Origin: an uncultured Bacilli bacterium
Lineage (GTDB): Bacteria > Bacillota_I > Bacilli_A > RFN20 > DUOF01
Assembly (NCBI GenBank): GCA_944363575.1
Contig: CALVUJ010000024.1
Coordinates: forward strand, 144,107 to 208,106
Length of the DNA stretch: 64,000 nucleotides
Direction of reading: 5' to 3'
Below the pieces are notes generated by a model, which made no database searches, was not told where the DNA came from, and worked only from the letters and a program-made list of their open reading frames with translations. The position numbers were made by a program, and so were the translations under genes. Below are positions 10,338 to 40,843 of the stretch, piece after piece; the first letter of the stretch is position 1, and each line of letters starts with the position of its first letter.

Positions 10338-10339
10338 TA

Positions 10340-10918: not shown

Positions 10919-10921
10919 AAG

Positions 10922-12093: not shown

Positions 12094-12177
12094 ATAAACC
12101 TCCTATATATTTAATTAAATGCACTTAAAATCTTTAAAATTACTATTATTTGAAGTAAAATATTACTGGGTGATTTT

Positions 12178-12699
12178 ATGTCTAATTTAATACCAACATG
12201 GTATTCAAGAAGTATTTATGATATTGATATTGATAAATTAAAAGAAAATAATATTAAATATATTTTATCTGATTTAGACAATACTTTAGTGGGGTATGAT
12301 ATTCCTACACCAAACGAATCAGTAATCAATTTAGTTACTAAATTAAAAGAAAATAACATCAATTTATTAGTAATTTCTAATAATAGTTATAAAAGATTAA
12401 AAACTTTTTCTAATCCATGTTCATTAAATTTCTTATCAAGAGCTAGAAAACCTGGAAGTAAAAAACTTGCTAACTATTTAAAAGAAAATAATATTGATGT
12501 TAAAGACTGCGTTTTTGTAGGAGATCAACTATTAACTGACATGTGGTGTGCTAATAAATTAAAATGCAAATCGATACTAGTAGACCCACTTCAAAAAAAA
12601 GAATCAATTTTTACTTTTTTTAACCGCCTTATTGATAAAAAAATTCGTAAGAGATATCATAAACAGGGAAGATTAGTTAGCATTATGAAAGGAGAATAA
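12178..12699 (+). CDS. yqeG: YqeG-family HAD phosphatase
   Basis: The HAD motifs DLDNTL, VISNNS and VGDQLLTD are present. It is the first gene of the conserved yqeG–yqeH–yhbY–nadD–yqeK–rsfS operon. Confidence 0.75.
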   Translation: MSNLIPTWYSRSIYDIDIDKLKENNIKYILSDLDNTLVGYDIPTPNESVINLVTKLKENNINLLVISNNSYKRLKTFSNPCSLNFLSRARKPGSKKLANYLKENNIDVKDCVFVGDQLLTDMWCANKLKCKSILVDPLQKKESIFTFFNRLIDKKIRKRYHKQGRLVSIMKGE

Positions 12700-12702
12700 G
12701 TT

Positions 12703-13818: not shown

Positions 13819-14105
13819 TGCTAACAACTAAGCAAAAAGTTAAATTACGTTCACTAGCAATGAATTTAAGACCCATTTTTCAAGTTGGTAAAGATAGCCT
13901 TAGTGCTAATTTAATCGAGGGCTTAAATAATGCTTTAGAAGCACATGAATTAATAAAAGTTACTGTTTTAAAAAATTGTTCTGATTCAATTAAAGAATTA
14001 GCTTTAGATATTTCTAGTAAAACTCATAGTGAAATTATCCAAATTATTGGAAGGAATATTGTTTTTTATCGTAAATCTAAAAAACAATTAATAGATTTAT
14101 CATGA
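13818..14105 (+). CDS. yhbY: YhbY/CRS1-family RNA-binding protein (YqeI)
   Basis: The LTTKQKVKLRSLAMNLRPIFQVGK motif is present. Confidence 0.75.
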   Translation: MLTTKQKVKLRSLAMNLRPIFQVGKDSLSANLIEGLNNALEAHELIKVTVLKNCSDSIKELALDISSKTHSEIIQIIGRNIVFYRKSKKQLIDLS

Positions 14106-15184
14106 AAAAAATTATTCTTTTTTATGGAAGTTTTGATCCCATACATAATGGACACTTAAAAATTGCTAAAGAAGCTTTAAAATTAATAAAGGGTGATGAA
14201 TTATACTTTGGGTTAAATAAAAACTCACATTTAAAGAATTTGACCCCTTTTACGAAAAGAAAAAAAATGATTGAATTAGCAATTGAACACAATACCAAGT
14301 TTTTTATATCTAATATCCTATTTGATTATAATGATATTGAAAAAACTTATACTGAAATATTAAATAATTGTAATGATGATAATGAATATTATATACTAGT
14401 TGGACAAGATCAATTAGCACTCTTACATAACTGGCATAACTTTTCTTTACTAAAAGAAAAGTTCAAATTTATTATAGCAAATAGAGGAAACATTACTTTT
14501 GATATTAATCCTAATTATATCTACCTTAATAACAAAGTATATAATATCTCTAGCAAAGAAATAAGAGAAGGGAATTATAAAGATATTCCTTTAAAAGTTA
14601 AAGAGTACATCATCAACAATAATATATATTTAGAAAAACAAATAAAAAAATATATGTCACCTAGAAGATTAAAACATACTTTATCCGTAAAAAAATTAGC
14701 ACTAAAAATATATAAATATAATAAAAATGACTTAAATACAAATAAAATAATAACAGCATGTCTACTACATGATATAGCAAAAGAATATCCTTTAAACAAA
14801 ACAAAAATAATCATGAAAAAGTATTATAGTGATAAAATCAAAGAAAATGCTTCTGTATATCATCAATACATAGGAGAATACATAGCTATCAAAAAATTTC
14901 ACATACAAGATAAAGAAATACTTGAAGCAATTAAATATCACACAACAGGCCATAAAAACATGTCAAAATTAGCAAAACTAGTATATGTTTCAGATAAGCT
15001 CGATCCACTAAAAAAATATGATTCATCTTTATTAATAAATGAATGTTTAAACAATCTAGAACAAGGATTTATTAGTGTGCTTAAAAAAAACATTGGATTT
15101 TTACATATTAATGGTTTAAAATATAATCATGGTGATACGAATAGTACTATCGACTATTATTTGAAGGGAGACATATTATCATGA
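14102..15184 (+). CDS. nadD: Fusion of nicotinate-nucleotide adenylyltransferase NadD (N-terminal) and the YqeK HD-domain phosphohydrolase (C-terminal)
   Basis: The N-terminus has the canonical HxGH motif YGSFDPIHNGH. The C-terminal HD domain has HTLSV...LLHDIAKE. The two activities sit in a single 360-aa ORF. Confidence 0.8.
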   Translation: MKKIILFYGSFDPIHNGHLKIAKEALKLIKGDELYFGLNKNSHLKNLTPFTKRKKMIELAIEHNTKFFISNILFDYNDIEKTYTEILNNCNDDNEYYILVGQDQLALLHNWHNFSLLKEKFKFIIANRGNITFDINPNYIYLNNKVYNISSKEIREGNYKDIPLKVKEYIINNNIYLEKQIKKYMSPRRLKHTLSVKKLALKIYKYNKNDLNTNKIITACLLHDIAKEYPLNKTKIIMKKYYSDKIKENASVYHQYIGEYIAIKKFHIQDKEILEAIKYHTTGHKNMSKLAKLVYVSDKLDPLKKYDSSLLINECLNNLEQGFISVLKKNIGFLHINGLKYNHGDTNSTIDYYLKGDILS

Positions 15185-15537
15185 TAGAATTAATTGTAAA
15201 AACATTATTAGACAAAAAAGGGGAGGATATTACTATTATAGATGTTTCAAAAAGAAATCCTTTATGTGACAACTTTATTATTTGTTCAGCAAATAATGTA
15301 CGTCAATTAGAAACTTTAGCTAAACAATTGGATGATAAATTAGCAGAAAATAACCTTCCTACTAAAAAAATTCAAGGAAAAGGTTCAAATTGGTTAATTG
15401 TAGATGCAGGTGATGCTATTGTACATATCTTTACAAAAGAAGAAAGAGAAAAATTTAACTTAGAAAAATTATGGGGTGATTTTCCTATTAAACATATCAA
15501 TACTAATGTAGAGAAAGTTGCTACTAAAAAAAGATAA
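15181..15537 (+). CDS. rsfS: Ribosomal silencing factor RsfS (Iojap/YqeL)
   Basis: The motifs GEDITIIDVS and LIVDAGDAIVHIF are present. Confidence 0.85.
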   Translation: MIELIVKTLLDKKGEDITIIDVSKRNPLCDNFIICSANNVRQLETLAKQLDDKLAENNLPTKKIQGKGSNWLIVDAGDAIVHIFTKEEREKFNLEKLWGDFPIKHINTNVEKVATKKR

Positions 15538-15636
15538 TTTTAAAAAAAAGGTATTATAATCTAATAACCTTTTTTTATTTATAGATTATATTTACATTTT
15601 TTCTTTTTTAAAATATACTTAAAGAAAATAAGGAAA

Positions 15637-16233
15637 GTGATAAAAATGATTCAAGAAAGTAAAATATTATCTCTAGCTAAAAAGAATAGGGGAGTAGTAA
15701 CTACTAAAGAAGTAAGTAACCATAACATAGCAAGAACATATTTAACTAAACTTGTTAATGAACATAAATTATATAGAGTAGAAAGAGGAATTTATTCTAC
15801 CTTTAACAAAAAAATAGACTTGTTTTATAAAATTCAAAATAGTAGCAAAAAAATTGTTTTTTCACATTTCACTTCCTTAGATATACAAGGATTTTATAAA
15901 AACATTGATATAACAGAACAATTGAGCATCCCACAAGGATATAACGCAAAAAATTACTCTAATTATAAATTATTTTATAATCACTTAAATAATTATCAAA
16001 AGGGGATGATAAAATACAAATATAATGATTATACTATCAATGTATATGATATCGAACGTTCAATTTGTGACATAATAAAAGATCGCCATCGTTTTGATGA
16101 AAGTAAATATAATAAATTTATAAACTTTTATTTTAATAAAACAGATATTAATTATAGTAAATTACTTGAATATTCAAAGATGTTACACATAAGCCCTTTA
16201 GTGCATCACTATTTATCATTATTTAAAGCTTAG
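15637..16233 (+). CDS. AbiEi-like winged-helix protein (type IV toxin-antitoxin antitoxin-like)
   Basis: The N-terminal pattern NRGVVTTKEVSNHNIARTYLTKLVNEHKLYRVERGIYS matches the AbiEi wHTH signature. The middle segment VFSHFTSLDIQGF is also AbiEi-like. The ATG at 15646 is an alternative start. Confidence 0.4.
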   Translation: MIKMIQESKILSLAKKNRGVVTTKEVSNHNIARTYLTKLVNEHKLYRVERGIYSTFNKKIDLFYKIQNSSKKIVFSHFTSLDIQGFYKNIDITEQLSIPQGYNAKNYSNYKLFYNHLNNYQKGMIKYKYNDYTINVYDIERSICDIIKDRHRFDESKYNKFINFYFNKTDINYSKLLEYSKMLHISPLVHHYLSLFKA

Positions 16234-16269
16234 TAACTAAAAAAATATTTATACATATTAATAATTAGG

Positions 16270-16749
16270 GTGATATGTATGAATAATTTTGATGAAGGAC
16301 TAAAAGAAACTAGAAACTATTTATATCAACAGGTAGATACTCTTGCACTTTTAAATAAATTATCTACTTCAATTAATTGTGAAATTTTAAATTTAGAAAA
16401 TTATCGAATTAATGTAATAGATGAAAACAGTTATATAATAAAATTTAATTTAACAAGCTTAATAAATAAACTAAAAGAATTTTTAAATGAAATTCATATT
16501 TTAATAAAAGGAAAAAAAGGATTTCCTATCTTTGGGTTAGGGGATATAGAAGCCATCTCGATAATAAAAGTAGCACCATCCACAGACTACAAACAATACG
16601 TAATATCAAATAACTTAAATAAAGAATTCAAAAACTTAAAAAACATTACATCAGAAATATTAAAAAATGCTCAAAAAGAAAATGATTATGACACTTTAAC
16701 CTTAATAGGTAACTTCTCGCTATTTTTAAATAAGAATATAAACTCCTAA
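16270..16749 (+). CDS. Hypothetical protein, putative partner of the AbiEi-like gene; it has no nucleotidyltransferase motifs
   Basis: A 159-aa ORF lies 36 nt downstream of the AbiEi-like gene. No recognisable motif was found. Confidence 0.4.
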   Translation: MICMNNFDEGLKETRNYLYQQVDTLALLNKLSTSINCEILNLENYRINVIDENSYIIKFNLTSLINKLKEFLNEIHILIKGKKGFPIFGLGDIEAISIIKVAPSTDYKQYVISNNLNKEFKNLKNITSEILKNAQKENDYDTLTLIGNFSLFLNKNINS

Positions 16750-16792
16750 ATCATAACTTCGCATAATATATATTATGTAATTTTTAAAGCAA

Positions 16793-16824
16793 TAAAAAAA
16801 GTATTCCTAATCGAATACTCTTTT
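16793..16824. terminator. Bidirectional intrinsic terminator between the hypothetical gene and metG
   Basis: The sequence aaaaaaa-AGTATTC-ctaatc-GAATACT-cttttattt has an A-run and a T-run flanking a 7-bp stem. Confidence 0.5.
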
Positions 16825-16826
16825 AT

Positions 16827-18422
16827 TTATACATTCATTCTTGTAAATAACGGCTCAATTTCTTTCAATTTTAAATCTTTTTCTATTTCAGTATAATTCC
16901 ATGAAAGACTATCTAAATCTAAAATATCTTTAATTTTTAGGCTTGTTTCAGGCATAAAAGGATTTAAGATATTAGCAAGATTAGCAATTATATTCAAACA
17001 AGTATAAATAACCTTATTAAATTCACTTATATTCTCTTTAAATAAAACCCATGGCTTACTATCATCATAATACTTATTAGCATACTCAAGCAACAATAAC
17101 ACTAAATGACAAGCTTCTTTAAATTCATATTCTTCAATTTTAGCACCAATCTTCTCATAATACTCTAAAACTATTTTCTTAACATCTACATCCATTATAT
17201 CCTTTTTAATTTCACTCAATCCTTTAAACTTTAACGTCCTATTAACAAAATTACCAAGTTTATTAACAATTTCATTATTATGAACAGTAGCATATAACTT
17301 CATACTAAAATCACTATCTTTTTTCTCAGGCCCATACCCTAGAATAAAAAACCTTAAAGTATCACTACTACCCTTACTAACAATATCAACTGTTTCTTCA
17401 TAATTACCTGTAGATTTAGATATCTTATCACCATTTAAAGTTAAATACTCACTAGAAACAATTTCACTAGGCAATTTATAATTTTCATTAAGAGCCATTA
17501 ATAAAGCTGGGAATATAATCGTATGAAAATTAATATTATCTTTACCATGAACCATATAACAAATATCACAACTATTTTCTTTTAAATAATCATTATAATT
17601 TAAATTATTTTCTAAACAATATCTTTTACAAGCAGTAACATAACCTAAAACAGCTTCAATCCATACATAAATCCTTTTATTATCATAACCTTCAAAAGGC
17701 ACTTTTATTCCCCAATCTAAATTACGAGTAATAGCCCTATCAATTAATCCCATCTTTAAATATTTTTTCGTTTCATTAATCGCATTAACTCTCCAATGAC
17801 TTTCATGTTCTTTTAAATAATCTTCAATTTTAGACTGAAAAGCACTTAATTTAAAATATAAATTTTTATCCTTACCTACAATTAATTTATTATTACAAAC
17901 CGCACACTTACCTTCCTTTAAATCTTCAAATGTAGGAACTTCACCACAATCACAACCATCACCTTTAGCCGTTTTACCACATTTCTTACAAGTATAAATT
18001 ATTTCCCTATCTTCCACAAACTTTTGACAATGCTCACAATACAAAGCATTATCTTCCTTTTCATAAATATAGCCATTATCATACATTTTCTTCAATAATT
18101 CTTGAACTTCTTTCTCATGAAAATCAGTTGATGTTTGAGTATATAAATTATAAGAAAAATTTAATAAATTGAAAGTCTCAACAAACCCTTCATGAAATTT
18201 ATCACTAATAACTTTAGGACTAACTTTTTCCTTAACTGCTCTTAAAGTAATAGGAGTACCATGACAATCACTACCAGAAACATACACTACATTATCCCCT
18301 TTTAAACGATGATATCTTGCTAGTGCATCCCCTGGCAATAACCCTGATAAGTGTCCAACATGTAAAGTACTATTTGCATAAGGCCAAGCACCACCTATTA
18401 AAACATTTCTTTTTTTACTCAT
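16827..18422 (-). CDS. metG: Methionyl-tRNA synthetase (short form without the C-terminal EMAP domain)
   Basis: The HIGH motif HVGHLSG and the KMSKS motif KISKST are present. Cys-rich zinc knuckles are also present. Confidence 0.9.
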   Translation of the reverse strand: MSKKRNVLIGGAWPYANSTLHVGHLSGLLPGDALARYHRLKGDNVVYVSGSDCHGTPITLRAVKEKVSPKVISDKFHEGFVETFNLLNFSYNLYTQTSTDFHEKEVQELLKKMYDNGYIYEKEDNALYCEHCQKFVEDREIIYTCKKCGKTAKGDGCDCGEVPTFEDLKEGKCAVCNNKLIVGKDKNLYFKLSAFQSKIEDYLKEHESHWRVNAINETKKYLKMGLIDRAITRNLDWGIKVPFEGYDNKRIYVWIEAVLGYVTACKRYCLENNLNYNDYLKENSCDICYMVHGKDNINFHTIIFPALLMALNENYKLPSEIVSSEYLTLNGDKISKSTGNYEETVDIVSKGSSDTLRFFILGYGPEKKDSDFSMKLYATVHNNEIVNKLGNFVNRTLKFKGLSEIKKDIMDVDVKKIVLEYYEKIGAKIEEYEFKEACHLVLLLLEYANKYYDDSKPWVLFKENISEFNKVIYTCLNIIANLANILNPFMPETSLKIKDILDLDSLSWNYTEIEKDLKLKEIEPLFTRMNV

Positions 18423-29693: not shown

Positions 29694-31805
29694 TTACATA
29701 GCTAATAAGTAAACAGTCGTATTAGCAATAGCAATCATTGTAAACAAGAAAGTATTAAAGAATGCACTAGTCCAAACATTGTTTGTTTTCTCATAGAACT
29801 TTCTAGCAAAAATAGCAGCAACAGCAAGTGAAGGAATTAATCCAAATAACAAGATAGGTTCTAATGATAAATCAGCAACACCAGCTGTACCTGTAATAAA
29901 TAACTTTCCATAATGCCATGCTAAGAACAACAACAATCCACCAATATTTAATGCCAATGCATATAAATAACCTTTCCATCCCTTAACATTCTTCGTATTA
30001 CTTGTAACCACAATACTATTAATGAAATAGTATACAAAATAAACAGGAACATAACGTAAGAATGATACAAAATGATGCCATTCAAATGATTTAATTGCAT
30101 AAACCCATAATCTAAAGTCAGTATTAAATATCCAACCAACTAAGAATACAATTGCATATAAACCAACGAACAAAATAACGGAAATAAGAAAAGCTAAACA
30201 AACTTGTTTAAATGAAGCCACTAAACCATAAGATTTAATAGTAACTTCATCTTTCCTTCTTACGATGTAATGAACTATGACTAAAGTAAGTAAAGCAATA
30301 CCAGCACTAATTAATGCCCAAAAACCAATACTACTAGCAGTAGGTGCATTATAATAATAACCAGTCTTTAAAATATCAAAATTATTTGCTAAATAACGAA
30401 CAAATAATGCTACAAAACTAATCATAATAGCGCCTTTAGTAATACCCCATGCTACTTCACGAGATTTAACAGACTCTTCTTCCGTTTTAAACATTCTAGA
30501 AACAAGATAAATAATCCAACCTGCTACTGCAAAAACAGTACATATATAGATAATATCTTCCATTAAATCAGAGAACATTGGTAGTTTCTCACCTGAACTA
30601 ATGAATGTAGGGAAATAATAAGCAGGAATAAGTGAAGTAACAAGTGCTACAACAGCTAATCCTATTTTCTTTCCTTTTGAAGTTTCTTTCTCTACTGGAA
30701 TAGCAGAGTCATCTGTTCTAACTTTAGCAAAGAAAGGAACTTTTAATAACATAGCCAAAGCAGGAACAATAGCTACTAATAAACCTATCAAAGCGATAAA
30801 TTCAAAAGTTTCCTTTAACCACCATGTTTGCCCACCCATATCATCTGCAGAAAATTCACTAGCTAAACCAGCCTTTTCTAATTGATATGAGAAAGCTTCT
30901 TCATAGAAATCAATCATATAACCAGTAGTTTCTGTAGAAAAATGATTCCAAGGATGGATTTCATAAGGAGTATAAATAACTCTTTGTCCATCAGTAGCAT
31001 TTACTTCATAAATTTTACCTGCTTCAAACTCTTCATTTTCACTCAAAGTATATCCAGCAGATTTCAAGAAGCTTTGACCTTCTTCTGTTTCAACATAATC
31101 TTTATAACCAACCGTATTTCTTCCAAGTTCACCATCATCACCAAAGAACTCATCAAAATGTGCAAGAATCATACCAGATGATCTAGTACCATACATATTA
31201 ATAATAGACTCATTAGTATACCTATAATCAGCACCAACAGTTAAACTTACAGCAATCTTTAAATGACCTTGAGTACCATAAGCCAAAGTATCATACATAA
31301 CAGCCATTTCTGTTGAGAACCCACCCATTGAGTGCCCACTAACAGCTATCATACCATTACCATTAGCATCTTTTAAAGTATATGGCTGATCATAAACCCA
31401 CTTTACAGCATCCCATAAAGATACAGTATAAAAAGCGAATTGTGCAGGAGTTGTCCAAGTAGACTCTCCATGATCATACATATCTAATGCTAATACAATA
31501 TAACCCCTCTTAGATAATTCAATCGCAGGAGCATCTTGCATTTCTTTTGAGTTTAGATACCCATGTGTTGTAACAATTACAGGACACGGATTATCTTTAT
31601 CACACCCTTTTGGAGTGTAAAGTAAACCTTCAAGTTGTCCCTCATATTCTTCGCCAAAAGCAGTACCTTCTGTTTCAAAAGCCACATTTTTAACTTTTAC
31701 AGAATATAAGGAAGTATTAACCATATTAGCTAACAAACTAAACAAAATCACGACACCCATACAAAGAGTAAATAACCATACAGGTGTTTTTAAAATTTTT
31801 TTCAT
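29694..31805 (-). CDS. Exported alpha/beta-hydrolase fused to a C-terminal polytopic membrane domain (paralog B)
   Basis: It has a signal anchor, the VTTHGYLNSKEMQDAPAIELSKRGYIVLALDMYDHG segment and the nucleophile elbow GHSMGG. About 8 or more hydrophobic helices follow from residue 330 onward. The AAGGGGG ribosome-binding site lies 17 nt after the upstream paralog. Confidence 0.6.
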   Translation of the reverse strand: MKKILKTPVWLFTLCMGVVILFSLLANMVNTSLYSVKVKNVAFETEGTAFGEEYEGQLEGLLYTPKGCDKDNPCPVIVTTHGYLNSKEMQDAPAIELSKRGYIVLALDMYDHGESTWTTPAQFAFYTVSLWDAVKWVYDQPYTLKDANGNGMIAVSGHSMGGFSTEMAVMYDTLAYGTQGHLKIAVSLTVGADYRYTNESIINMYGTRSSGMILAHFDEFFGDDGELGRNTVGYKDYVETEEGQSFLKSAGYTLSENEEFEAGKIYEVNATDGQRVIYTPYEIHPWNHFSTETTGYMIDFYEEAFSYQLEKAGLASEFSADDMGGQTWWLKETFEFIALIGLLVAIVPALAMLLKVPFFAKVRTDDSAIPVEKETSKGKKIGLAVVALVTSLIPAYYFPTFISSGEKLPMFSDLMEDIIYICTVFAVAGWIIYLVSRMFKTEEESVKSREVAWGITKGAIMISFVALFVRYLANNFDILKTGYYYNAPTASSIGFWALISAGIALLTLVIVHYIVRRKDEVTIKSYGLVASFKQVCLAFLISVILFVGLYAIVFLVGWIFNTDFRLWVYAIKSFEWHHFVSFLRYVPVYFVYYFINSIVVTSNTKNVKGWKGYLYALALNIGGLLLFLAWHYGKLFITGTAGVADLSLEPILLFGLIPSLAVAAIFARKFYEKTNNVWTSAFFNTFLFTMIAIANTTVYLLAM

Positions 31806-31822
31806 TATTTACCCCCTTTCAA

Positions 31823-34129
31823 TTACATTGATAACAAATAAATAGTAGTATTAGCCACAGTAATTAATGTAAATAACATTGAATTCAAGAAGGCAGCAAC
31901 CCACACATTATTTGTCTTTTCATAAATCTTCTTAGCAAAAACAGCAGCTAAAGCAAGAGATGGTATTAAACCATACAATAAAATTGGTTGTAATGCAAGT
32001 GTAGGAAAAGCACCAACACCCGTTAAGAATAACTTACCATAATGCCATATTAAGAATAAGATTAATCCACCTGCATTTAATGCCATTGCATATAAATAAC
32101 CTTTAAAGCCCTTAACATCTTTAGTATTAACAGCTACAACAATAGCATTAATAAAGTAATAGATAAAGAATACTGGAGTATACTTTAAGAATGCCACAAA
32201 GTGATGAGCACCAAATGTTTTAACAGCATATACCCATAACCTAAAGTCTGTTTTAAAGATTAAATCAACTAAGAATACAATTACATAAATACCTACAATA
32301 ACAGCAAGAGCTAAAACAAATGCAATACCAACTTGTTTTAACGATGCCTTTAATCCATAAGACTTAATTGTAGCCCCATCTTTTTTATTTACAGTATAGT
32401 GAGTAATTACTAAAGAAAGTAAAGAAATACATGCACTAATTAAAGCCCAATAACCAATTGAATTAGTCGTAGGAGCATTCCACCAATATCCTTCTTTTAA
32501 AATATCTCCTGCATTAACACACAAATACCTTAAAGCTAAAGCAATAAGAGCAACAACTAAGCAACTCTTTGTAACTTTCCAAGCATAAGCACTTGCTTTG
32601 TTAGTAGTCTCTTCTCCTTTACTAACACGTGACACTATAACAGCAACCCATAAAGCTACAATTAATACAAATAAGATATAAATAATACCTTCAGCTATTC
32701 TAGTGAAAATACTCAAATCAGCTGATTTTGTAATAAATGTAGGGAAATAGTAAGCAGGAATAAGCGATACTAATAATGAACTTATCACTAAGCCAATCTT
32801 CTTACCTTTATTTGCCTTCTTATTATCTTCACTAACTTCTTCTTCACTAGTAACAGTCTCACCTTCAACAGTAACAACACTTGCAAAGAAAGGAACCTTT
32901 AATAATAAAGTAATCATAGGAATTATTGCTAAAAATAAACCTATCATAGCAACAAACTCAAAACCTTCCTTTAACCACCAAGTTTGTCCTCCACCACTAG
33001 TTAAATCTAACGCATTAAAATCTAAATCAGCATGTAATCCCATCTGATATTCAAATGCTTCATTGTAAAATTCAATCATATAAGCAGTAGATTCTGTAGA
33101 AAAATGATTTTGTGGATGTGTTTCATAAGGTGTATAAATAACTCTTTGACCAGTATATGTCTCACCAGTTGTTACATAATTACCATCATCATCTAATTTA
33201 ACATCATAAAACACCCCAGCAGCATATTCTTCATCAACACCTAAATTAGTACCATTACCTAAATAGTAACGGCCAGTATCAGTATCAACAAAATCTTTAT
33301 AAACAACTGTATCATTTGGGAAATTATAGCCTGAACTAGAATCACCAGCTACAATTTCACTACCTCTATCTAAAAAGAAAAATTCATCAAAATGACCAGC
33401 AATTGTACCACTAGTACGATCTGCATAAGTTGCTAAAATTTCTTCATGAGATTTAATAACTCTCATTTCTTCAGGAGTTCTAGCATCAGGTGACTCCATT
33501 CTTTTAAAGTCAGCACCTGCAGCTAAATTAATAGCAATCTTACGATGTGCCGTAGTAGGATCAGCAGCTACCATTTCTTGATAGTTCAATTCATCCCAAT
33601 AAATAGCAAGATGAGATGAAAAACCACCCATTGAATGACCACTAACAGCAATCATACCATCACCATCAGCAGCCTTTAATACATAATCTTTTTCATACAT
33701 TACCTTTACAGCATCCCACAAAGCAGTTTGCCAGAAAGTAAATGTAGCAGGAGTATCCCAAGTAGAATCTCCATGATCATACATGTCTAATGCTAATACA
33801 ATATAACCCCTCTTAGATAATTCAATCGCAGGAGCATCTTGCATTTCTTTTGAGTTTAGATAACCATGTGTTGTAATAATTAATGGACATGGCTTATCGT
33901 TACTACAAGTATCAGGCATATATAACAAACCAGAAAGTTTACCATTATTATTACCAGTCTCTAATGTAACTTCATCAACATCAACTTTATAAAATGAAGT
34001 ATTAGCCATTTGAGCAAAAATGCTTCCTAGTAATACAAGAATCATCGCCAATGATAATAACCATGTTGGTTTTTTAAAATTTTTCATAAAACTTTTAAAA
34101 CGACATTCTTTTTTTACATTTTCTTCCAT
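31823..34129 (-). CDS. Exported alpha/beta-hydrolase fused to a C-terminal polytopic membrane domain (paralog A)
   Basis: It has the same architecture as paralog B. The 35-aa TTHGYLNS...MYDHG block is identical and GHSMGG is present. The internal ATG at 34087 aligns with the start of paralog B and is an alternative start. Confidence 0.6.
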   Translation of the reverse strand: MEENVKKECRFKSFMKNFKKPTWLLSLAMILVLLGSIFAQMANTSFYKVDVDEVTLETGNNNGKLSGLLYMPDTCSNDKPCPLIITTHGYLNSKEMQDAPAIELSKRGYIVLALDMYDHGDSTWDTPATFTFWQTALWDAVKVMYEKDYVLKAADGDGMIAVSGHSMGGFSSHLAIYWDELNYQEMVAADPTTAHRKIAINLAAGADFKRMESPDARTPEEMRVIKSHEEILATYADRTSGTIAGHFDEFFFLDRGSEIVAGDSSSGYNFPNDTVVYKDFVDTDTGRYYLGNGTNLGVDEEYAAGVFYDVKLDDDGNYVTTGETYTGQRVIYTPYETHPQNHFSTESTAYMIEFYNEAFEYQMGLHADLDFNALDLTSGGGQTWWLKEGFEFVAMIGLFLAIIPMITLLLKVPFFASVVTVEGETVTSEEEVSEDNKKANKGKKIGLVISSLLVSLIPAYYFPTFITKSADLSIFTRIAEGIIYILFVLIVALWVAVIVSRVSKGEETTNKASAYAWKVTKSCLVVALIALALRYLCVNAGDILKEGYWWNAPTTNSIGYWALISACISLLSLVITHYTVNKKDGATIKSYGLKASLKQVGIAFVLALAVIVGIYVIVFLVDLIFKTDFRLWVYAVKTFGAHHFVAFLKYTPVFFIYYFINAIVVAVNTKDVKGFKGYLYAMALNAGGLILFLIWHYGKLFLTGVGAFPTLALQPILLYGLIPSLALAAVFAKKIYEKTNNVWVAAFLNSMLFTLITVANTTIYLLSM

Positions 34130-34340: not shown

Positions 34341-34363
34341 AAAAAAAAGCAACATATGTTGCT
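34341..34363 (-). terminator. Intrinsic terminator of the TasA/SipW/AAA+ operon
   Basis: The perfect palindrome agcaacatatgttgct is followed on the minus strand by tttttttt. It lies 3 nt after the stop codon of the 83-aa ORF. Confidence 0.55.
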
Positions 34364-34366
34364 CCC

Positions 34367-34618
34367 TTAACCATGTAACCCGTTACTTTGCCTTTGCATA
34401 TCCTCAACCACAATATCAAAAATATCACCAATCGAGGCACAATATTTCAAAACTTCCCATGGAGTATTCGTATGAAAATGAATTTTAATCAAGTTTTCAT
34501 CCCCCACCACTAACAAACAATCACCTTCAATATTATTTCTAATATAATCACTAATATCATCTTCAGACAAATTATTTCCCTCTATCAATAACTGCGTATC
34601 ATACTTATACTCTAACAT
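34367..34618 (-). CDS. Small 83-aa protein, last gene of the operon
   Basis: An AGGAG ribosome-binding site is coupled to the upstream gene. The segment CLLVVGDENLIKIHFHTNTPW resembles the C-terminal domain of DAK2/FakA-type proteins. This is a weak, memory-based similarity. Confidence 0.4.
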   Translation of the reverse strand: MLEYKYDTQLLIEGNNLSEDDISDYIRNNIEGDCLLVVGDENLIKIHFHTNTPWEVLKYCASIGDIFDIVVEDMQRQSNGLHG

Positions 34619-34629
34619 TCTATCACTCC

Positions 34630-36288
34630 TTATTTACTATTCTTCTCTAATAAAACTTGTTTTCTTTTAGCTCTCTTCTCTTTATTAACCTTATTCATAG
34701 CCTCTACTTTTTTATCAATCTCTTTTATCTTAACCTCATAAACTTTAATTTTTTTCTTATACTTTACAATATTCTCTTTCCATGCCACTTGCATCTTCTT
34801 TAGATTAACAATTTCTTTTTTATTATCTACAACATTAACTTTATTATTAATTTCCTGCTTAAGCATATAAATAGTACCATGACTCTTTTCAATATTACTA
34901 TCACAAATCTTAATTTTATTCATTAAAACATTAATTCTATTATTAAAAATATATTTACGATCTCTAACCTTCTTAACAGCCTTAGACTCTTGCTCAATAA
35001 TAGCCTTTTCTTTTCTAATACGAGCCCTCCTCATCATCTCTTTACGAGCTTCACTCTTTTGCTTCAACAACTCATCAATTTCCTTTTGTTTCAGCCTAAT
35101 ATATTCCCTTTTATCATTTTCTATTTCCTTCAATTCTTGCTCTTTTTGCCTATGTTTTTCAATAGTAAGACTAAGCTGCTCCTTCAAATAAGCCTTCTCC
35201 TTAATTAACTCTTCTAATTGTTTAGCCTTATCTTCACCAAATAAATATGGATCAATCTCTTCTCTTACTTCCACATTCTCATTATTATCCATAACTTTTT
35301 TAATCTTTTTAATTTTATTATTTTTAATAACTAAATTAATAGATTTCTTTAATGCCTCATTATACTTTTCATTATCTTTTTGACAAGCATCAACTGCAGA
35401 ATACATATACATTATAGCCTTATTCATCTTCTTCTTATACTTATCAGTTAACTCAATAGGAATCTTCTCAACCCTAAAATCCAAAACCATACCCTCATAA
35501 TTACTAATATAATTCCATAAATTATAACAAATATTATAATTAGGCTCCTTAGTAATAATATTTGTTCTTTTAATTGCTCCTACTAAAGGCCTAGCCTCTG
35601 CTAACCTTTTCATAAACATACTACCATAAACTCTACCTAATGTTCTTCTAATCCATGCTACTCTTCTAAACAAATCATCCATCTTCATAATATCATCTTT
35701 ATTAAAATTATCCGTAACAATATCTAAATTCATCTCAAAATTAACCCTAGAATTCTTAATATTAAAAGTCGTTTTATTCTTTAAAGCCGTCAAAGAAGAA
35801 AAATCAATATCATCTAAAAACTCACTAAATCTCCTATCAAAAAAAGTAGCTAAATTTAAAATTAATGACTTAATAAAAATATTCTCATATAAAACAAAAT
35901 TATCATCAGATAACCCCGTCAAAATCCTTGTAGGAACAACCATTCCATCTTCATCAACTCTACTAATCAAATGAGAATGACTAGATAAATGCTTAATAGA
36001 AGCCGTACCCGTTTTCCTAGCTAACTCAACGGGAATAATTTCATAATCGGTCTTTAAAAACTGCTTAGGTGCTCTAGTAATAATATCAAGTGCTACTAAA
36101 CCATTCTCAATCATTTTCAAACACTCTTCATCATATTCCCTAACAACAACTTTAGTTATATGGTCAATTTTAATATCTGCTTTATCAAATCCATTACTAA
36201 ACAATGCATAAAAAGTATCATCTTTACCAACATTATCATGACGACGACTAAGTTTTTCCCAAAATCTCTTAATAATATCCACAGCCAT
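34630..36288 (-). CDS. Protein with a ~330-aa N-terminal domain and a long Lys/Glu-rich coiled coil; putative partner (McrC position) of the McrB-like GTPase
   Basis: It is translationally coupled, with an AGGAGG ribosome-binding site 6 nt after the AAA+ gene. Residues 330 to 552 are highly charged heptad-like repeats. No clear PD-(D/E)xK motif was seen. Confidence 0.5.
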   Translation of the reverse strand: MAVDIIKRFWEKLSRRHDNVGKDDTFYALFSNGFDKADIKIDHITKVVVREYDEECLKMIENGLVALDIITRAPKQFLKTDYEIIPVELARKTGTASIKHLSSHSHLISRVDEDGMVVPTRILTGLSDDNFVLYENIFIKSLILNLATFFDRRFSEFLDDIDFSSLTALKNKTTFNIKNSRVNFEMNLDIVTDNFNKDDIMKMDDLFRRVAWIRRTLGRVYGSMFMKRLAEARPLVGAIKRTNIITKEPNYNICYNLWNYISNYEGMVLDFRVEKIPIELTDKYKKKMNKAIMYMYSAVDACQKDNEKYNEALKKSINLVIKNNKIKKIKKVMDNNENVEVREEIDPYLFGEDKAKQLEELIKEKAYLKEQLSLTIEKHRQKEQELKEIENDKREYIRLKQKEIDELLKQKSEARKEMMRRARIRKEKAIIEQESKAVKKVRDRKYIFNNRINVLMNKIKICDSNIEKSHGTIYMLKQEINNKVNVVDNKKEIVNLKKMQVAWKENIVKYKKKIKVYEVKIKEIDKKVEAMNKVNKEKRAKRKQVLLEKNSK

Positions 36289-36303
36289 CTTCTTAACCTC
36301 CTA

Positions 36304-38175
36304 TTATACTTGTTTTAATAATTCATTAATATACTCAATAGAATCTGCAAAAACACCCTTACCAAACTCTTTATCCAAAACATTTAATAAGCCTTTTAAT
36401 TCATTCTTAATAAATGAAATATTTAAAGCTTCAAGTTTATGTAAAATCTTTCTAGTTAATAAATGGTCAACTGCTTCATATTCACTACCACCACATCCCA
36501 TATAACAAGGAACAAATCTCTTTATTTGCTTCATAATACGGTTACCAAAAGAAATCTTAAAGTTAGTAATCATATACTTATCTACATTAGCTAACTTTTG
36601 TAAAGTCTCTTCACTAATCGCATACTTAGTACAAGCATCATCAAATAACTTCTCAAAATATTCACTAGTCATTGTAATACTATCAGCATCAAACTCAGGC
36701 TCAAATGCTACTGTCTTTTTATTTAAAGACATTGACATCGCACGGTCATAAACTTTATCGGTAATAAGGAAAGTAGAATCATCATTATTCGCCGTACCTA
36801 AAAACCAAACATTTTTAGGAATTAGCAACTTACCGTGATCTAACAAAATAGGATCACCCTCCATAGTAGTATTAATAATTTCTATAATCCATTCATCTCT
36901 ATTAGGCATTTCCATAATAGACAAGAAATCAGCAAAATAATACTCAATACGAGCTAAGTTCATTTCATCAAGTACAAGTATCATTGGCTCTTTATGTTTC
37001 GCACATGTATATAGTTCCTCCAAAAAAGCCGACTCATTAAACTTCTTTGTAAATTCATTTAAATAACCCAATAATTCAGATCTATCTTTCCAGGATGGTT
37101 GAACTGCTACAATTGGTGTCCTACTCTTAAAAAACTTACCAAAAGCATAAGGAAGTGAAGTTTTACCAGTACCAGATATACCCTCCAAAATAGCAAAGTG
37201 AGTGGTACCTAACCCCGCAAAAAACAATGCCAAAGTTCTAAAACTATAGTACAACTTAAGCTTACCTGCTGCAAAGTTTCTAAATCTTTTAACTAATTGC
37301 TCTAAAGTAATTGTTTTTTCTTCTTCACTCATTTCAGGAAAAGAATAATTACGATAATCAAAATCAATTGTAATAAGCTTAGGAAAACGAGCTTTCTCTA
37401 GTACTTCTTTAGGAAGTCTCTCCTTACCATCTTCTTCATCTACTACTTCAACTTCTTCTACAGAATCATCTTCCTTATCTTCGCTATCAACAGGAATTGG
37501 ATACCCATTAACATCAAATAAAAACTTCCCTTTTTTATCTTTTTTAAACTCAATAAGAGGAATAGGTTTCTTATTCTCATCTAATAAAACATTACCCTCT
37601 TCATCTTTTTTATACTCTAACTCAATCTCAGGAAAACCATTCTTACCAAATTTAGGTCTCCCTTTTTTATCAACTTTAAATTTAAAACCAACAGTCTTAA
37701 CTCCATCAGGATTAAGAATAGCCTCTTCTGCTCTCTTTCTCGCATTTTCCATATTCTTAAGATCTTCTTTAGTAGGAGCATACCCTAACTCTGCAACCTT
37801 TAAAGATAAAAGTTGACTCCTCTCATCCATCAAATCAATAACCTTATTATTCAAAGTTTCAATTTCCCTTAACAAAACAATCTTATCTTTAACCTTTCTT
37901 TTAGCAATATATCTTCTTTTAGAAACCCTAACAATTAAATAAACCAAAGCACCAATTGCCGCTACAAAAACTAAAATAGAAAGAACAAATAAAACCCAAC
38001 CTAGAAAATCAAAACCATCTGAATACAAATCAAAAACAGACTTATAATAAGAAAAATTACCAATAATAGCTCGCCATACAGAAACTAAAAAATCAATTAT
38101 TAACTTAAAAAAATCAATAATATCCTCCCATAATACTTTAAGCAATCTCCCAATATACTTACCAAACGCTGCCAT
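36304..38175 (-). CDS. Membrane-anchored McrB-like AAA+ (AAA_5) GTPase with an N-terminal transmembrane segment, a coiled coil and a Lys-rich linker
   Basis: The Walker A motif is GISGTGKTS. The McrB-type Walker B motif is ILVLDEMNLAR. The McrB signature FLGTANNDDSTF is present. The ATG directly abuts the sipW stop codon (TAAATG). Confidence 0.65.
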   Translation of the reverse strand: MAAFGKYIGRLLKVLWEDIIDFFKLIIDFLVSVWRAIIGNFSYYKSVFDLYSDGFDFLGWVLFVLSILVFVAAIGALVYLIVRVSKRRYIAKRKVKDKIVLLREIETLNNKVIDLMDERSQLLSLKVAELGYAPTKEDLKNMENARKRAEEAILNPDGVKTVGFKFKVDKKGRPKFGKNGFPEIELEYKKDEEGNVLLDENKKPIPLIEFKKDKKGKFLFDVNGYPIPVDSEDKEDDSVEEVEVVDEEDGKERLPKEVLEKARFPKLITIDFDYRNYSFPEMSEEEKTITLEQLVKRFRNFAAGKLKLYYSFRTLALFFAGLGTTHFAILEGISGTGKTSLPYAFGKFFKSRTPIVAVQPSWKDRSELLGYLNEFTKKFNESAFLEELYTCAKHKEPMILVLDEMNLARIEYYFADFLSIMEMPNRDEWIIEIINTTMEGDPILLDHGKLLIPKNVWFLGTANNDDSTFLITDKVYDRAMSMSLNKKTVAFEPEFDADSITMTSEYFEKLFDDACTKYAISEETLQKLANVDKYMITNFKISFGNRIMKQIKRFVPCYMGCGGSEYEAVDHLLTRKILHKLEALNISFIKNELKGLLNVLDKEFGKGVFADSIEYINELLKQV

Positions 38176-38709
38176 TTATAACTCCTCCTTTTTCTCACTA
38201 ATCATCTTAATAAACTCATATAACGTTATACAAAACATCACGCCTAATGGACCAATAACCAATAACCAATAACCTAAACTAGTCCTTGAAAACCTTATAA
38301 CATACCCTAATAATGGTATCCTAAAGCCTCTATATACACCAATTATCTCACTAGCACTTACCATTTTATCATCAATATTAGGATTATTAACCCCTTTTGT
38401 AACATATTTATCTTCATAAACATCAACAATCTCATGAGTAACAATCTTCTCTTCACTATCAATAATAGTAATAAAACTAATAACATCACCAATTTCATAT
38501 TTCTCTTTTTTATTCTTATCAATAGCAATATAATCCCCATCTTTAATAAGCGGCTCCATACTACTGCCATTAACATCTAAAAAAGAATACCTACCAAACT
38601 TACTAACCCCATAATCATTACTCATAAAACTAATGATTAATAAACCTAATACGAAAATGATAAAAATGCTAATAAAACAACCACTAATAATTTTAAATAC
38701 TCTTTTCAT
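38176..38709 (-). CDS. sipW: Signal peptidase I, SipW type (archaeal/ER-type)
   Basis: The catalytic motif is VNGSSMEP. N-terminal and C-terminal transmembrane helices are present. It sits directly downstream of a gene with a SipW-cognate signal peptide. Confidence 0.75.
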   Translation of the reverse strand: MKRVFKIISGCFISIFIIFVLGLLIISFMSNDYGVSKFGRYSFLDVNGSSMEPLIKDGDYIAIDKNKKEKYEIGDVISFITIIDSEEKIVTHEIVDVYEDKYVTKGVNNPNIDDKMVSASEIIGVYRGFRIPLLGYVIRFSRTSLGYWLLVIGPLGVMFCITLYEFIKMISEKKEEL

Positions 38710-38718
38710 ACTATCACC

Positions 38719-39513
38719 CTAGCTATCATCTCCTTCTCTATCAATGGCCTCAAAACGCACATTAACCCGCAACTTACAATCAAAAATAGAAATATCACAA
38801 TTAACATCATCACTCTCTAACCAAACAAAAACATCCATTTTAGAAATTTTATTAGCATATAAATCTAATAACAAAACATCATCACTAGACCCTGTATATC
38901 CTAAATTATTAAAAGTTTCATATTTTAATAATCCCCCTTTATAAGACGAATTATCTTTAATCTCTGTCGCATACACCTCAGTATTAATTGGTGCATAACT
39001 AATTTCAATACCTGAACTAGTAGGAGTTTCAACAGTAGTATAAGAAACAAAACCAACCCTAAGAGACTTAACAATCTTATTTTTTTGCTCATTAGTAAAG
39101 ATACTAGACTCATCAACAATATCAATAACAGTCCCCGAAATTGAACCCGCTAAATACAAATCTTTATCATCGCTAGCCGAAAAATACAAACTAAAAGAAA
39201 TATACCCATCAGTCGCCGTATTACTACCATCAAACAAACTAATATAATTATCACCAACAGTACCAAGCAATGGCTTTAAAGTAACTTCATTATCGCCTAT
39301 CATCTCATTAAAACTAATACTATCTTTAAAAGTTCCCTTAACCCCACTAGTAGAAACCATCACATTTTCTTGTGTGGCTACATTAAAAACTAAATTATCA
39401 ACGCGTGGATGTAACTGCTCAGAAAAATAAGCATAGGTTGCACTAGCGAAAGTAACAAAAGAAACAATTAATAAACTTAATAAAAAAACCATCTTCTTTT
39501 TCATAACTTTCAC
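38719..39513 (-). CDS. TasA/camelysin-family secreted protein with a SipW-cognate signal peptide
   Basis: The signal peptide is MKKKMVFLLSLLIVSFVTFASATYAYFSEQ (AYFS-D/E class). The C-terminus CKLRVNVRFEAI resembles the TasA motif KLQFSFEAT. Confidence 0.65.
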   Translation of the reverse strand: MKVMKKKMVFLLSLLIVSFVTFASATYAYFSEQLHPRVDNLVFNVATQENVMVSTSGVKGTFKDSISFNEMIGDNEVTLKPLLGTVGDNYISLFDGSNTATDGYISFSLYFSASDDKDLYLAGSISGTVIDIVDESSIFTNEQKNKIVKSLRVGFVSYTTVETPTSSGIEISYAPINTEVYATEIKDNSSYKGGLLKYETFNNLGYTGSSDDVLLLDLYANKISKMDVFVWLESDDVNCDISIFDCKLRVNVRFEAIDREGDDS

Positions 39514-39516
39514 CCC

Positions 39517-40191
39517 TTATAAAACACCCAAAACATCAAAAGACATTGAAAGTGAAATAGACCCACCTATTTTATCATTCGTACAATCAACATCAGCACC
39601 CTCAATCCAAATAACTAACGAATACTTTGTAACTTCATCAGGTTCAAAATCAGTAACAGTATGACTAACAATAACTTTATCATTTTCAAAAGCAACAGTT
39701 CCACTCTCAGGTTCATTAGTTAAACTATTTTTCTTCGCATAAGTCGCATTTAAAAGAGAATTACTATCCTCATCTATAACATACAACTTAACCCTAATAG
39801 CCTCATCCAAATCATTACTTTTATTTTCAACATTCAAACTCATTGAATAATCCAAATTTTCAATTCCACTATTAAAAACATAAAAAGTATAAGCAATATA
39901 ATTATCACCGCTACTATCACCATCAATTAAATCAGTAATCGTAGGAACATAATCTTCTGTAGTATCCCATGCTTCCATAATTGAAGGGCCATACATCTTA
40001 CCCTTAGGATCACTCAAAGTTTTAGACTCTGATAAAGACAAACACTTTCTAAGACTACTACGATCAACAAAAATAGTTAAATTGCCTTGACGGTTACTAG
40101 TAACAGCAATAACAATTAAAAAGAATATTGAACATAATAAAACGGAGATTAAAATAGGTCTTATTTTTTTCCAATAAAATCGCTTACTCAC
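39517..40191 (-). CDS. TasA-like paralog with an uncleaved-type N-terminal membrane anchor (TapA-like position)
   Basis: An N-terminal transmembrane segment is present. The C-terminal segment WIEGADVDC...SISLSMSFDVLG is shared with the downstream TasA-like protein (WLESDDVNC). It is the first gene of the operon. Confidence 0.5.
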   Translation of the reverse strand: MSKRFYWKKIRPILISVLLCSIFFLIVIAVTSNRQGNLTIFVDRSSLRKCLSLSESKTLSDPKGKMYGPSIMEAWDTTEDYVPTITDLIDGDSSGDNYIAYTFYVFNSGIENLDYSMSLNVENKSNDLDEAIRVKLYVIDEDSNSLLNATYAKKNSLTNEPESGTVAFENDKVIVSHTVTDFEPDEVTKYSLVIWIEGADVDCTNDKIGGSISLSMSFDVLGVL

Positions 40192-40429
40192 CTATTACAC
40201 CCCCATCATAAAAAGACTTACACTATCAATATACTTTTAATGACTAAATTAATCAATATAAAGCCTTTATTTTTTAAAAAAGATAGGTCTTTTTGTCGAA
40301 AAAAGCTGCATCTATTTTCACCTATTTTTACAAAAAATGTAATTAAAAAAAAACGATATCCTCATCGTTTCTTTATCACTAAACAACTAATTATAACCTT
40401 CTATCTTATCAAACTACTTAATATCAAAA

Positions 40430-40789
40430 TCAAATTAAGTTATTATTACGCAAAACACTTTCAATATACTTTATTCTTTTAGCTAATGACGCACGATCTT
40501 CATAATTAGCTCTATCATTCATATCCTTTCTATCACTCTCCACCTGCAAAACAAATCCTTGATGAGAAGTAATTAAAAATAAATTAGTAGTAATCGTTGA
40601 AAAAATACTTCCAATTACTGTTATTTCTTCAATAGTAAAAGACTCTGTTAAAACAAGTGCAATAACATAACTTAGTATAGGTAACTCATAAGAATTAAAC
40701 TTTAATAGCCAAGAACAAAAATTTCTTACATTTTCAGCTTCAAAATCTTCTAAAAAAGGATCATTAGTAAAATTATATTCAGGATTCAT
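40430..40789 (-). CDS. Hypothetical 119-aa protein with one central hydrophobic segment
   Basis: The ORF lies between the dnaJ terminator and the TasA-like operon. No recognisable motifs were found. Confidence 0.35.
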   Translation of the reverse strand: MNPEYNFTNDPFLEDFEAENVRNFCSWLLKFNSYELPILSYVIALVLTESFTIEEITVIGSIFSTITTNLFLITSHQGFVLQVESDRKDMNDRANYEDRASLAKRIKYIESVLRNNNLI

Positions 40790-40822: not shown

Positions 40823-40843
40823 AACTCACTTATTCAGTGAGTT
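40823..40843 (-). terminator. Hairpin terminator overlapping the dnaJ stop codon
   Basis: The hairpin aactcact-tattc-agtgagtt is followed on the minus strand by tttttatttg. Confidence 0.45.

Follow-up and report, generated by a model that had tools for sequence, protein, structure and literature searches.

A McrB/McrC-like GTPase pair encoded with a SipW-type signal peptidase and TasA-like exported proteins: a CoCoPALM operon and candidate surface-filament system in an uncultured Bacilli bacterium

A six-gene operon that joins two TasA-like exported proteins and a SipW-type signal peptidase to a McrB-like GTPase, a McrC-like partner and a small FakA-like protein was analyzed in a stretch of 64,000 nucleotides (nt) from an uncultured Bacilli bacterium (assembly GCA_944363575.1, contig CALVUJ010000024.1, positions 144,107 to 208,106), which is referred to here as the window. 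By its sequence the operon is a member of CoCoPALM, a system that has been named without experimental study so far, and all four published descriptors of CoCoPALM were recognized in it. To judge from their domains, the GTPase and its partner are a McrB/McrC pair without DNA reader and without nuclease, and the operon as predicted from its gene content is not a restriction enzyme, because no gene in the cluster can cut nucleic acid. We consider it probable that the operon builds or controls a cell-surface filament, with the GTPase/McrC-like pair coupled to the processing or polymerisation of the secreted protein T1 and not to DNA restriction. Hundreds of species have inherited the gene set as one unit, and since it is met again in dozens of distant species the arrangement is far from a chance one. 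The six genes of the window, in gene order, are the following.

39517-40191, minus strand: T2, 224 amino acids (aa), membrane-anchored T-family paralogue and proposed fibre base or anchor, with a transmembrane (TM) segment at residues 10-30
38719-39513, minus strand: T1, 264 aa, secreted fibre-subunit candidate with a predicted beta-sandwich body, the motif VWLESDDVNC and a Sec signal whose last residues are SATYAYFSEQ
38176-38709, minus strand: signal peptidase I of SipW/archaeal-ER type, 177 aa, matching TIGR02228 at 7.7e-24 (above cut-off) and NF046067 SipW at 5.5e-26
36304-38175, minus strand: McrB-like GTPase of CoCoPALM type, 623 aa, assigned by PDB and PADLOC matches and by motifs
34630-36288, minus strand: McrC-like partner without nuclease, 552 aa, assigned by DUF2357 in the family and by conserved columns
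34367-34618, minus strand: stand-alone FakA-like middle-domain protein, 83 aa, matching PF21645 over the full domain at 6.3e-20

All six genes are co-directional, run from 40191 to 34367 and are separated, in gene order, by 3 (or 12), 9, 0 (TAAATG), 15 and 11 nt, with a GGAGG-like Shine-Dalgarno sequence ahead of every start. A preliminary description of this DNA, made from the letters alone, had reported six tightly packed minus-strand genes with gaps of 0 to 15 nt and a Shine-Dalgarno sequence each, with which the listing of open reading frames (ORFs) and the inspection of the starts agree. The motifs that it quoted (GISGTGKTS, LVLDEMNLAR, GTANNDDST, SMEP and the signal FASATYAYFSEQ) were all found in the translations.

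CoCoPALM was introduced by Bell et al. (eLife 2024, PMC11090510) as 'another large clade' of McrB GTPases in the NxD branch, whose GTPases carry a fused FtsB-like TM/coiled-coil domain, are associated with proteins of the signal-peptidase family and, like their McrC homologues, have coiled coils; the description comprises three sentences and defers the analysis to a future paper. No follow-up paper on CoCoPALM was found in a literature search, TasA does not occur in the main text of PMC11090510, no CoCoPALM entries are present in the text of its supplements, and a literature search for McrB together with signal peptidase and TasA returned only the mention of an E. coli strain genotype. In the window, the NxD signature (usually followed by D or E) was found as N463-N464-D465-D466, for which an ungapped alignment with E. 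coli McrB also allows an NxxD reading; the N-terminal FtsB-like TM and coiled coil were found as a TM at residues 59-82 followed by a heptad-like segment, its likeness to FtsB/FtsL being weak; the adjacent McrC homologue with coiled coil is the 552-aa gene, after a 15-nt gap; and the neighbour of the signal-peptidase family is the SipW-type gene immediately upstream. Compared with the usual form of the system, which has a second peptidase after the McrC-like gene, the lineage of the window is distinguished by the lack of that peptidase, by the 83-aa FakA-like protein, by a Lys-rich insert of ~110 aa in the GTPase and by a short cytoplasmic tail on its peptidase. The preliminary description had stated that no such combination is known from characterised tapA-sipW-tasA operons, which is right, as these are without a nucleoside triphosphatase (NTPase); the novelty is nevertheless overstated, as the association had already been named CoCoPALM in 2024.

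The GTPase carries the following elements, all encoded on the minus strand.

37930-38001, minus strand: TM, residues 59-82, from hydropathy (Kyte-Doolittle > 2.5)
37783-37887, minus strand: coiled coil, residues 97-131
37486-37680, minus strand: three Lys-rich repeats of 22 aa, residues 166-230, a lineage-specific insert
37156-37182, minus strand: Walker A, GISGTGKTS, residues 332-340
36949-36978, minus strand: Walker B, LVLDEMNLAR, residues 400-409
36772-36798, minus strand: signature GTANNDDST (N463-N464-D465-D466), residues 460-468

The PDB matches of the GTPase were McrB chains only (6hz4, at 8e-4 with the single sequence and at 3e-6 with a profile of 22 sequences). With the profile built from 22 homologues no MoxR/RavA-type chain was matched and only McrB chains were present at E <= 0.1, so that a MoxR/RavA assignment, the alternative proposed for checking at the outset, was rejected, and the original reading of a McrB-type AAA+ GTPase behind a TM, a coiled coil and a Lys-rich repeat linker is upheld by these matches and by the placement of the motifs. 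Pfam gave just a generic AAA_5 match (0.008, sub-threshold) and NCBIfam a weak McrB match. Among the PADLOC models, PDC-M26A matched at 1.1e-38 in the GTPase core only (profile positions 303-438 of 724); this core is the sole PDC-M26 component matched in the window, in which the candidate system is thus incomplete, and a literature search for PDC-M26 found nothing. The partner, peptidase and T proteins of the window and of four other loci matched no PADLOC model. Walker A, Walker B (LDEMNLAR) and N463/D465/D466 were invariant in 22 diverse homologues that share about 45% overall identity, with >90 invariant columns, so that the GTPase is presumably active. The family comprises at least 8000 homologue clusters at 90% identity, in which the catalytic residues are invariant, and is encoded in at least 581 species, its carriers including metagenome-assembled genomes (MAGs) of Bacilli and Clostridia, Acholeplasma granularum ATCC 19168, Izemoplasmatales, Erysipelotrichaceae, Faecalibacillus and Collinsella, among the last the cultured TF11-5AC.

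The N-terminus of the GTPase consists of the strong TM, a basic stretch and then a conserved heptad-like segment, LxxEIxxLNxxxxxLxxEKNxILxLK; the GTPase domain is predicted to be cytoplasmic because a single strong TM is followed by the basic stretch. The Pfam FtsL model matched 5 of 28 GTPase N-termini weakly, the best at 0.0023, below Pfam thresholds. In agreement with the first reading, no DNA-binding (modified-base reader) domain was found by Pfam or NCBIfam in residues 1-290, which comprise the TM, the coiled coil and the Lys-rich linker. The repeats (consensus [FY]K.D..G....F..NG.P.P..E) lie in the insert between the coiled coil and the GTPase core and are confined to close relatives of ~620 aa, being absent from the ~510-aa majority of the family.

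In the McrC-like partner two regions were distinguished, again on the minus strand.

35401-36234, minus strand: DUF2357-type N-domain, approximately residues 19-296, with conserved H-L, P, YENxF, T and LW
34636-35235, minus strand: coiled-coil hairpin, residues 352-551, from helices in the AlphaFold2 (AF2) model

Residues 19-296 align (blastp, 1e-31 to 1e-33) with the gene 3' of the GTPase in distant loci. Pfam DUF2357, the McrC N-terminal domain, matched close homologues of the partner and 24 of 39 family members, the best at 6e-14; on the window's own 552-aa protein it is below Pfam detection. The columns conserved in the 39 partners are H99, L100, P118, Y133-E134-N135-R136-F137, T241, L256 and W257. 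No conserved D...(D/E)xK, the signature of PD-(D/E)xK nucleases, is present in the alignment of these partners. In the AF2 model, built with 20 homologues, the helices at 352-481 and 486-551 are confident and the N-domain is poor, with a predicted local distance difference test score (pLDDT) mostly < 50; the McrC assignment therefore rests on the Pfam DUF2357 matches of the family, and an inactivated, cryptic nuclease fold could still lie in residues 150-330, where the pLDDT of the model is < 50. Searches of PDB sequences with the partner family profile gave only low-complexity coiled-coil matches, and hydropathy indicated no TM helix in the partner. Across the six operon proteins, Pfam, NCBIfam and PADLOC revealed no nuclease, HEPN, methyltransferase or DNA-binding domain. 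The protein had been described as a long coiled coil with no nuclease motif, which is correct as far as it goes; the description was incomplete in that residues 19-296 are the McrC N-terminal DUF2357 domain, and of the two identities then suggested for this N-domain, McrC-like and PD-(D/E)xK, the DUF2357 matches in the family favour the former and the lack of a conserved motif speaks against the latter. In locus L035 (9017-15760) the ORF called for the McrC-like homologue has 2247 aa, with immunoglobulin-like (Big_2-style) repeats over the C-terminal ~1500 residues; such repeats would not be expected in a cytoplasmic protein, and read-through or mis-assembly may account for them.

The signal peptidase was recognized as SipW with its SMEP motif, as previously described. 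Its elements, in residues, are TM1 at 7-28, the Ser in GSSMEP at 48-53, the His in VTHEI at 90-94 and TM2 at 146-166, and its stop codon abuts the start codon of the GTPase (TAAATG). The catalytic Ser and His are invariant across 42 homologues; both peptidase paralogues of related systems retain them, and many bear K/E-rich cytoplasmic C-tails. The 83-aa protein, which had been taken for a DAK2/FakA C-terminal segment, is instead a complete FakA-like middle domain, with the motif C34-x12-H47-x-H49-x10-C60. Its gene stands where other systems have the second SipW-like gene and was seen elsewhere only in the close relatives L002 and L003, at 81% identity; it is not a pseudogene fragment, because the 81% identity is kept in L002.

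For T1, the ATG at 39504 is likely the true start, which gives 261 aa and agrees with the database gene call. T2 has no TYAxF cleavage motif, has the C-terminal motif IWIEGADVDC, and its orthologues come first in the cluster in 33 loci. The SipW-cognate-type signal of T1 and the uncleaved N-terminal anchor of T2 were already noted in the preliminary description and were both borne out. T1 and T2 are paralogous by hhalign (probability 99.2%, E 2.8e-19) and have in common the motif W-[LI]-E-G-x-D-x-D-C; the signal of the T1 family ends in T-Y-A-W-F (consensus TYAWF[TS]). The signal of T1 itself (T-Y-A-Y-F-S-E) is one that we take to be like GTWAAFND of TasA and GTFAYFSD of CalY. A total of 1415 clusters were obtained in a T-family profile search of 1.8 billion representatives. 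The TasA, camelysin, CalY and BsaA models of Pfam and NCBIfam matched none of 43 locus-derived and none of 57 library-derived T members, and the TIGR04088 cognate_SipW signal model matched one of the latter. Against PDB sequences nothing significant was found with the T-family profiles: TasA was not recovered, the TasA-like pilin AbpA (7ueg) appeared at E 0.72, and a second profile gave nothing. The AF2 model of T1 (pLDDT 77.8) returned nothing significant with Foldseek; its best structural matches are TasA and other donor-strand filament subunits. The term 'TasA-like', used from the start, thus agrees with the style of the signal, the anchor and the best fold matches and is not matched by any TasA, CalY or BsaA model or PDB profile; on the predicted fold and the operon logic it seems reasonable, without being an established family membership.

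To examine the conservation of the cluster, ORFs were called in 80 loci and classed by jackhmmer seeded from the window proteins, and synteny was counted over those 37 loci in which the flank on each side measured at least 4 kb. With S for the peptidase, A for the GTPase and C for the McrC-like partner, the canonical order was [EAL EAL] T2 T1 (T1) S A C S (T...). C directly follows A in 35 of the 37 loci, at least one S is present in 35, and S stands on both sides of the A-C pair in 26. Secreted proteins of the T family, or diverged ones that resemble it, are encoded in 35, and EAL or GGDEF/EAL genes flank 18. Chance adjacency, which the preliminary description had named as a possible objection, is not borne out by these counts. 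In locus L078, from a MAG, a single ORF of 978 aa (11238-14174) joins a McrC-like N-domain through a coiled coil and a TM to an entire SipW-like peptidase, which bears a coiled-coil tail; the fusion is topologically coherent, and as a single instance in a MAG it is possibly an assembly artefact. All six genes recur in the relative L002, whose GTPase is 82% identical, with other surroundings upstream. The extracellular parts diverge faster than the cytoplasmic ones, because the identities of T1 (52%) and the peptidase (47%) between the window and L002 are below those of the GTPase (82%) and the partner (77%). Within lineages the flanking genes are kept, c12-c13-c14 in 9 loci labelled Collinsella being one case.

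Other arrangements were also observed. In a second architecture (~14 loci), the recognisable T genes are replaced by diverged small proteins with the same signal style and by an 1800-aa repeat protein. This cluster type was recorded in L015, L023, L028, L031, L036, L047, L057, L070, L072, L079 and L085. It comprises a surface protein of ~1800 aa with Gly/Asn repeats, S, four small proteins whose signals are TasA-style, the 350-aa cytoplasmic c6, the GTPase, a McrC-like partner that is short (372 aa), another S and two further small secreted proteins; Pfam gave no match on its components. In a minority architecture, that of L038 and L049 (around 8400-13600), the GTPase and a McrC-like partner of ~367 aa are flanked by the unrelated c67 (~385 aa) and c68 (~445 aa), which have no Pfam match, and no peptidase or T gene lies within 6-9 kb. 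A complete canonical cluster is present in the cultured, wall-less Acholeplasma granularum ATCC 19168 (L017, 1926-16519), comprising GGDEF-EAL and EAL genes, T2, two T1, S, the GTPase, the McrC-like gene, S, a short T and a 767-aa T-like protein. The 767-aa protein ends in CBM_5_12 carbohydrate-binding modules and the GGDEF-EAL protein flanks the cluster, which fits an adhesive surface structure under cyclic di-GMP (c-di-GMP) control.

The surface-filament role is suggested by the fold matches of T1, the TasA/CalY-style signal, the CBM_5_12 modules, the 1800-aa surface-repeat protein and the GGDEF/EAL neighbours, and the functional linkage of the parts is indicated by the synteny in 35/37 loci, the L078 fusion and the K/E-rich peptidase tails. 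In the proposed mechanism, T1 would be exported via Sec and cut by the SipW-type peptidase at TYA|YF, after which the processed subunits would polymerise by donor-strand exchange into a filament that T2 would hold at the membrane. On the cytoplasmic side, the GTPase would form a McrB-like hexamer plugged by the McrC-like N-domain, and this complex would dock on the peptidase and anchor proteins via its coiled coils and membrane anchor, so that the processing of subunits and their polymerisation might be gated or driven by GTP hydrolysis; c-di-GMP would control the filament system in most relatives. A bolder version, which we regard as possible and put forward tentatively, is an NTP-dependent biogenesis pathway for donor-strand (TasA-like) filaments, in which a nuclease-less and reader-less McrBC motor has been exapted as a c-di-GMP-regulated pilus engine or checkpoint that contacts paired SipW-type peptidases by its coiled coils. 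Such a pathway would be widespread in gut Bacillota, Collinsella and wall-less Acholeplasma-like bacteria, and its T proteins would form a new pilin family (TYAWF...WLEGQDxDC).

Like Bacillus tapA-sipW-tasA, B. cereus sipW-tasA-calY and C. perfringens sipW-bsaA-bsaB-bsaC, the window has a SipW-type peptidase beside at least two exported paralogues, in the window of predicted beta-sandwich fold, of which one is a membrane-associated protein or anchor (proposed for T2) and one the major subunit (proposed for T1), with a signal ending in T-[YFW]-A-x-F-[SN]-[DE]. In the characterised operons of the TasA, CalY and BsaA systems, SipW alone suffices and no cytoplasmic NTPase is present, whereas the window has one; its T proteins are also outside the TasA/camelysin sequence family (no Pfam or NCBIfam match) and have their own motif, W-L-E-G-x-D-x-D-C, and most related systems have two peptidases. 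With E. coli McrBC (PDB 6hz4, 6ut6) the window shares the AAA+ GTPase core (Walker A, DExN Walker B and N..D signature) and the DUF2357 domain of the McrC N-terminus, which in McrBC plugs and activates the hexamer; it differs in having a TM and coiled coil in place of the DNA-binding N-domain, a coiled coil in place of the PD-(D/E)xK nuclease, a membrane anchor and secretory genes in the operon. The NxD GTPases of the sister clade, CoCoNuT (CnuB/CnuC), likewise have coiled-coil fusions, and their McrC homologues often lack an active nuclease. CoCoNuTs without a McrC nuclease are, however, always paired with HEPN or other nucleases and with RNA-binding domains, none of which was found in the window by Pfam, NCBIfam or PADLOC, and CoCoNuTs are neither membrane-anchored nor linked to peptidases. 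The type IV pilus and the archaellum (PilB/FlaI and prepilin peptidase) follow the same logic of a hexameric NTPase at the membrane, a dedicated peptidase and paralogous subunits in one operon, but the window has a McrB AAA+ protein and not a secretion ATPase, a SipW-type serine and not an aspartic prepilin peptidase, predicted beta-sandwich subunits and not alpha-helical pilins, and no PilC-like platform protein.

Homology of the GTPase to McrB and the PADLOC defence-candidate match to PDC-M26A could also point to a membrane-associated McrBC- or CoCoNuT-like anti-phage system, in which the GTPase/McrC-like pair would sense invading nucleic acid or infection and the peptidase and exported proteins would be effectors, for example by envelope remodelling, receptor block or abortive infection. 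The predicted defensive role of the sister CoCoNuT clade (PMC11090510), the fast evolution of the surface proteins and the different genomic context of the cluster in the 82%-identical L002 are consistent with it. We nevertheless regard it as unlikely: the six genes contain no nuclease, HEPN, methyltransferase or DNA-binding domain, the partner family is without a conserved PD-(D/E)xK, the other components match no PADLOC model, and EAL genes and adhesin-type modules are associated with the cluster. Moreover, the strong conservation of the GTPase (about 50% identity across classes, with >90 invariant columns) and the lineage-stable flanks, such as c12-c13-c14 in Collinsella, are unlike patchy defence islands. 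The preliminary description had offered both a role in assembly, export or remodelling of a TasA-like fibre and a membrane McrBC-like defence module; it is partly supported, the fibre role being preferred as the probable one and the defence module not being expected.

Two further explanations were weighed. Two independent neighbouring modules, namely a sipW-tasA-type matrix operon that needs no NTPase and a degenerate McrBC remnant with an unrelated membrane function, would accord with the fact that characterised TasA, CalY and BsaA systems work with SipW alone, that the T family and the GTPase pair evolve at very different rates, and that in L038 and L049 the pair is accompanied by neither a peptidase nor a T gene. 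This seems highly improbable in view of the co-occurrence in 35/37 loci, the bracketing of the pair by peptidase genes in 26/37, the tight coupling (TAAATG) and the McrC-like/peptidase fusion protein, and the invariant catalytic residues indicate that the GTPase is not a remnant. AAA+ hexamers commonly thread polypeptides, and an FtsB/FtsL-like anchored hexamer might serve the peptidases by extracting or unfolding signal peptides or signal-anchor proteins, or might work at the septum, as part of a membrane protein-processing, quality-control or division machine of which the exported proteins are substrates and not a filament. The FtsL-like TM and zipper at the N-terminus (Pfam FtsL in 5/28, best 0.0023) and the two active peptidase paralogues per system are in keeping with such a machine, but the FtsL similarity is under Pfam thresholds, McrB-family hexamers are plugged by McrC and are not substrate-threading (6hz4, 6ut6), and several T paralogues with pilin-like fold matches, together with the adhesin modules, point to a polymer, so that we consider the machine very unlikely. 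The surface filament remains the preferred explanation.

The transcription signals of the operon were located as follows.

40228-40256, minus strand: candidate sigma-70-type promoter, TTGATT-17-TATATT, from a consensus scan (9/12 matches)
34343-34368, minus strand: intrinsic terminator, a stem-loop and T-run (AAGGGAGCAACATATGTTGCTTTTTTTT), which ends the operon and overlaps the stop codon of the 83-aa gene

The shared terminator described earlier was thus found again, at slightly different coordinates. The promoter candidate lies in the 238-nt gap 5' of the first gene and is weak, the region being no richer in such sites than shuffled sequence; it fits because it is placed after the dnaJ terminator and an unrelated 119-aa ORF. 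The upstream neighbours are hrcA-grpE-dnaK-dnaJ, with their own terminator at 40823-40843. The 119-aa ORF (40430-40789) was rejected as part of the system, as it is missing in the relative L002, and so were the two downstream hydrolase/multi-TM genes, which form a separate transcription unit past the terminator and are absent from other CoCoPALM loci. These are two tandem paralogues of 768 and 703 aa (29694-34129, minus strand), 52-54% identical, with an N-terminal alpha/beta-hydrolase (Hydrolase_4, 2e-6) and a big C-terminal multi-TM domain; they adjoin the cluster in L002 too and have their own promoter-like site at 34294-34266. Elsewhere in the window, a T-box leader (RF00230, 93.3 bits) is present at 62147-62350 on the minus strand, 5' of a 580-aa ORF (60352-62094). 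The region at ~15000-17000 looks like a replication terminus: genes converge there, with the plus strand used at 1-16.7 kb and the minus strand at 16.8-64 kb, and the GC skew reverses from ~+0.2/+0.34 to -0.3/-0.57, with a cumulative maximum near 16 kb.

The present analysis adds to the named-only CoCoPALM its likely subunits with their signal motif, the two-peptidase bracket, the McrC-like/peptidase fusion, the c-di-GMP link, adhesin-bearing subunits and cultured carriers, of which A. granularum ATCC 19168, with its complete canonical cluster, is a ready experimental model. For annotation, homology alone is no ground for labelling these GTPases 'restriction enzymes' or defence genes. If the surface-filament reading is true, it would mark the first recruitment of the motor of a restriction enzyme (McrBC) for making or controlling a fibre on the cell surface, and also the first TasA-type fibre system dependent on a cytoplasmic NTPase. 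The system could then serve adhesion, aggregation or biofilm formation in its carriers, which number at least 581 species and include many abundant, poorly understood gut Bacilli, Collinsella and Acholeplasma-like bacteria.

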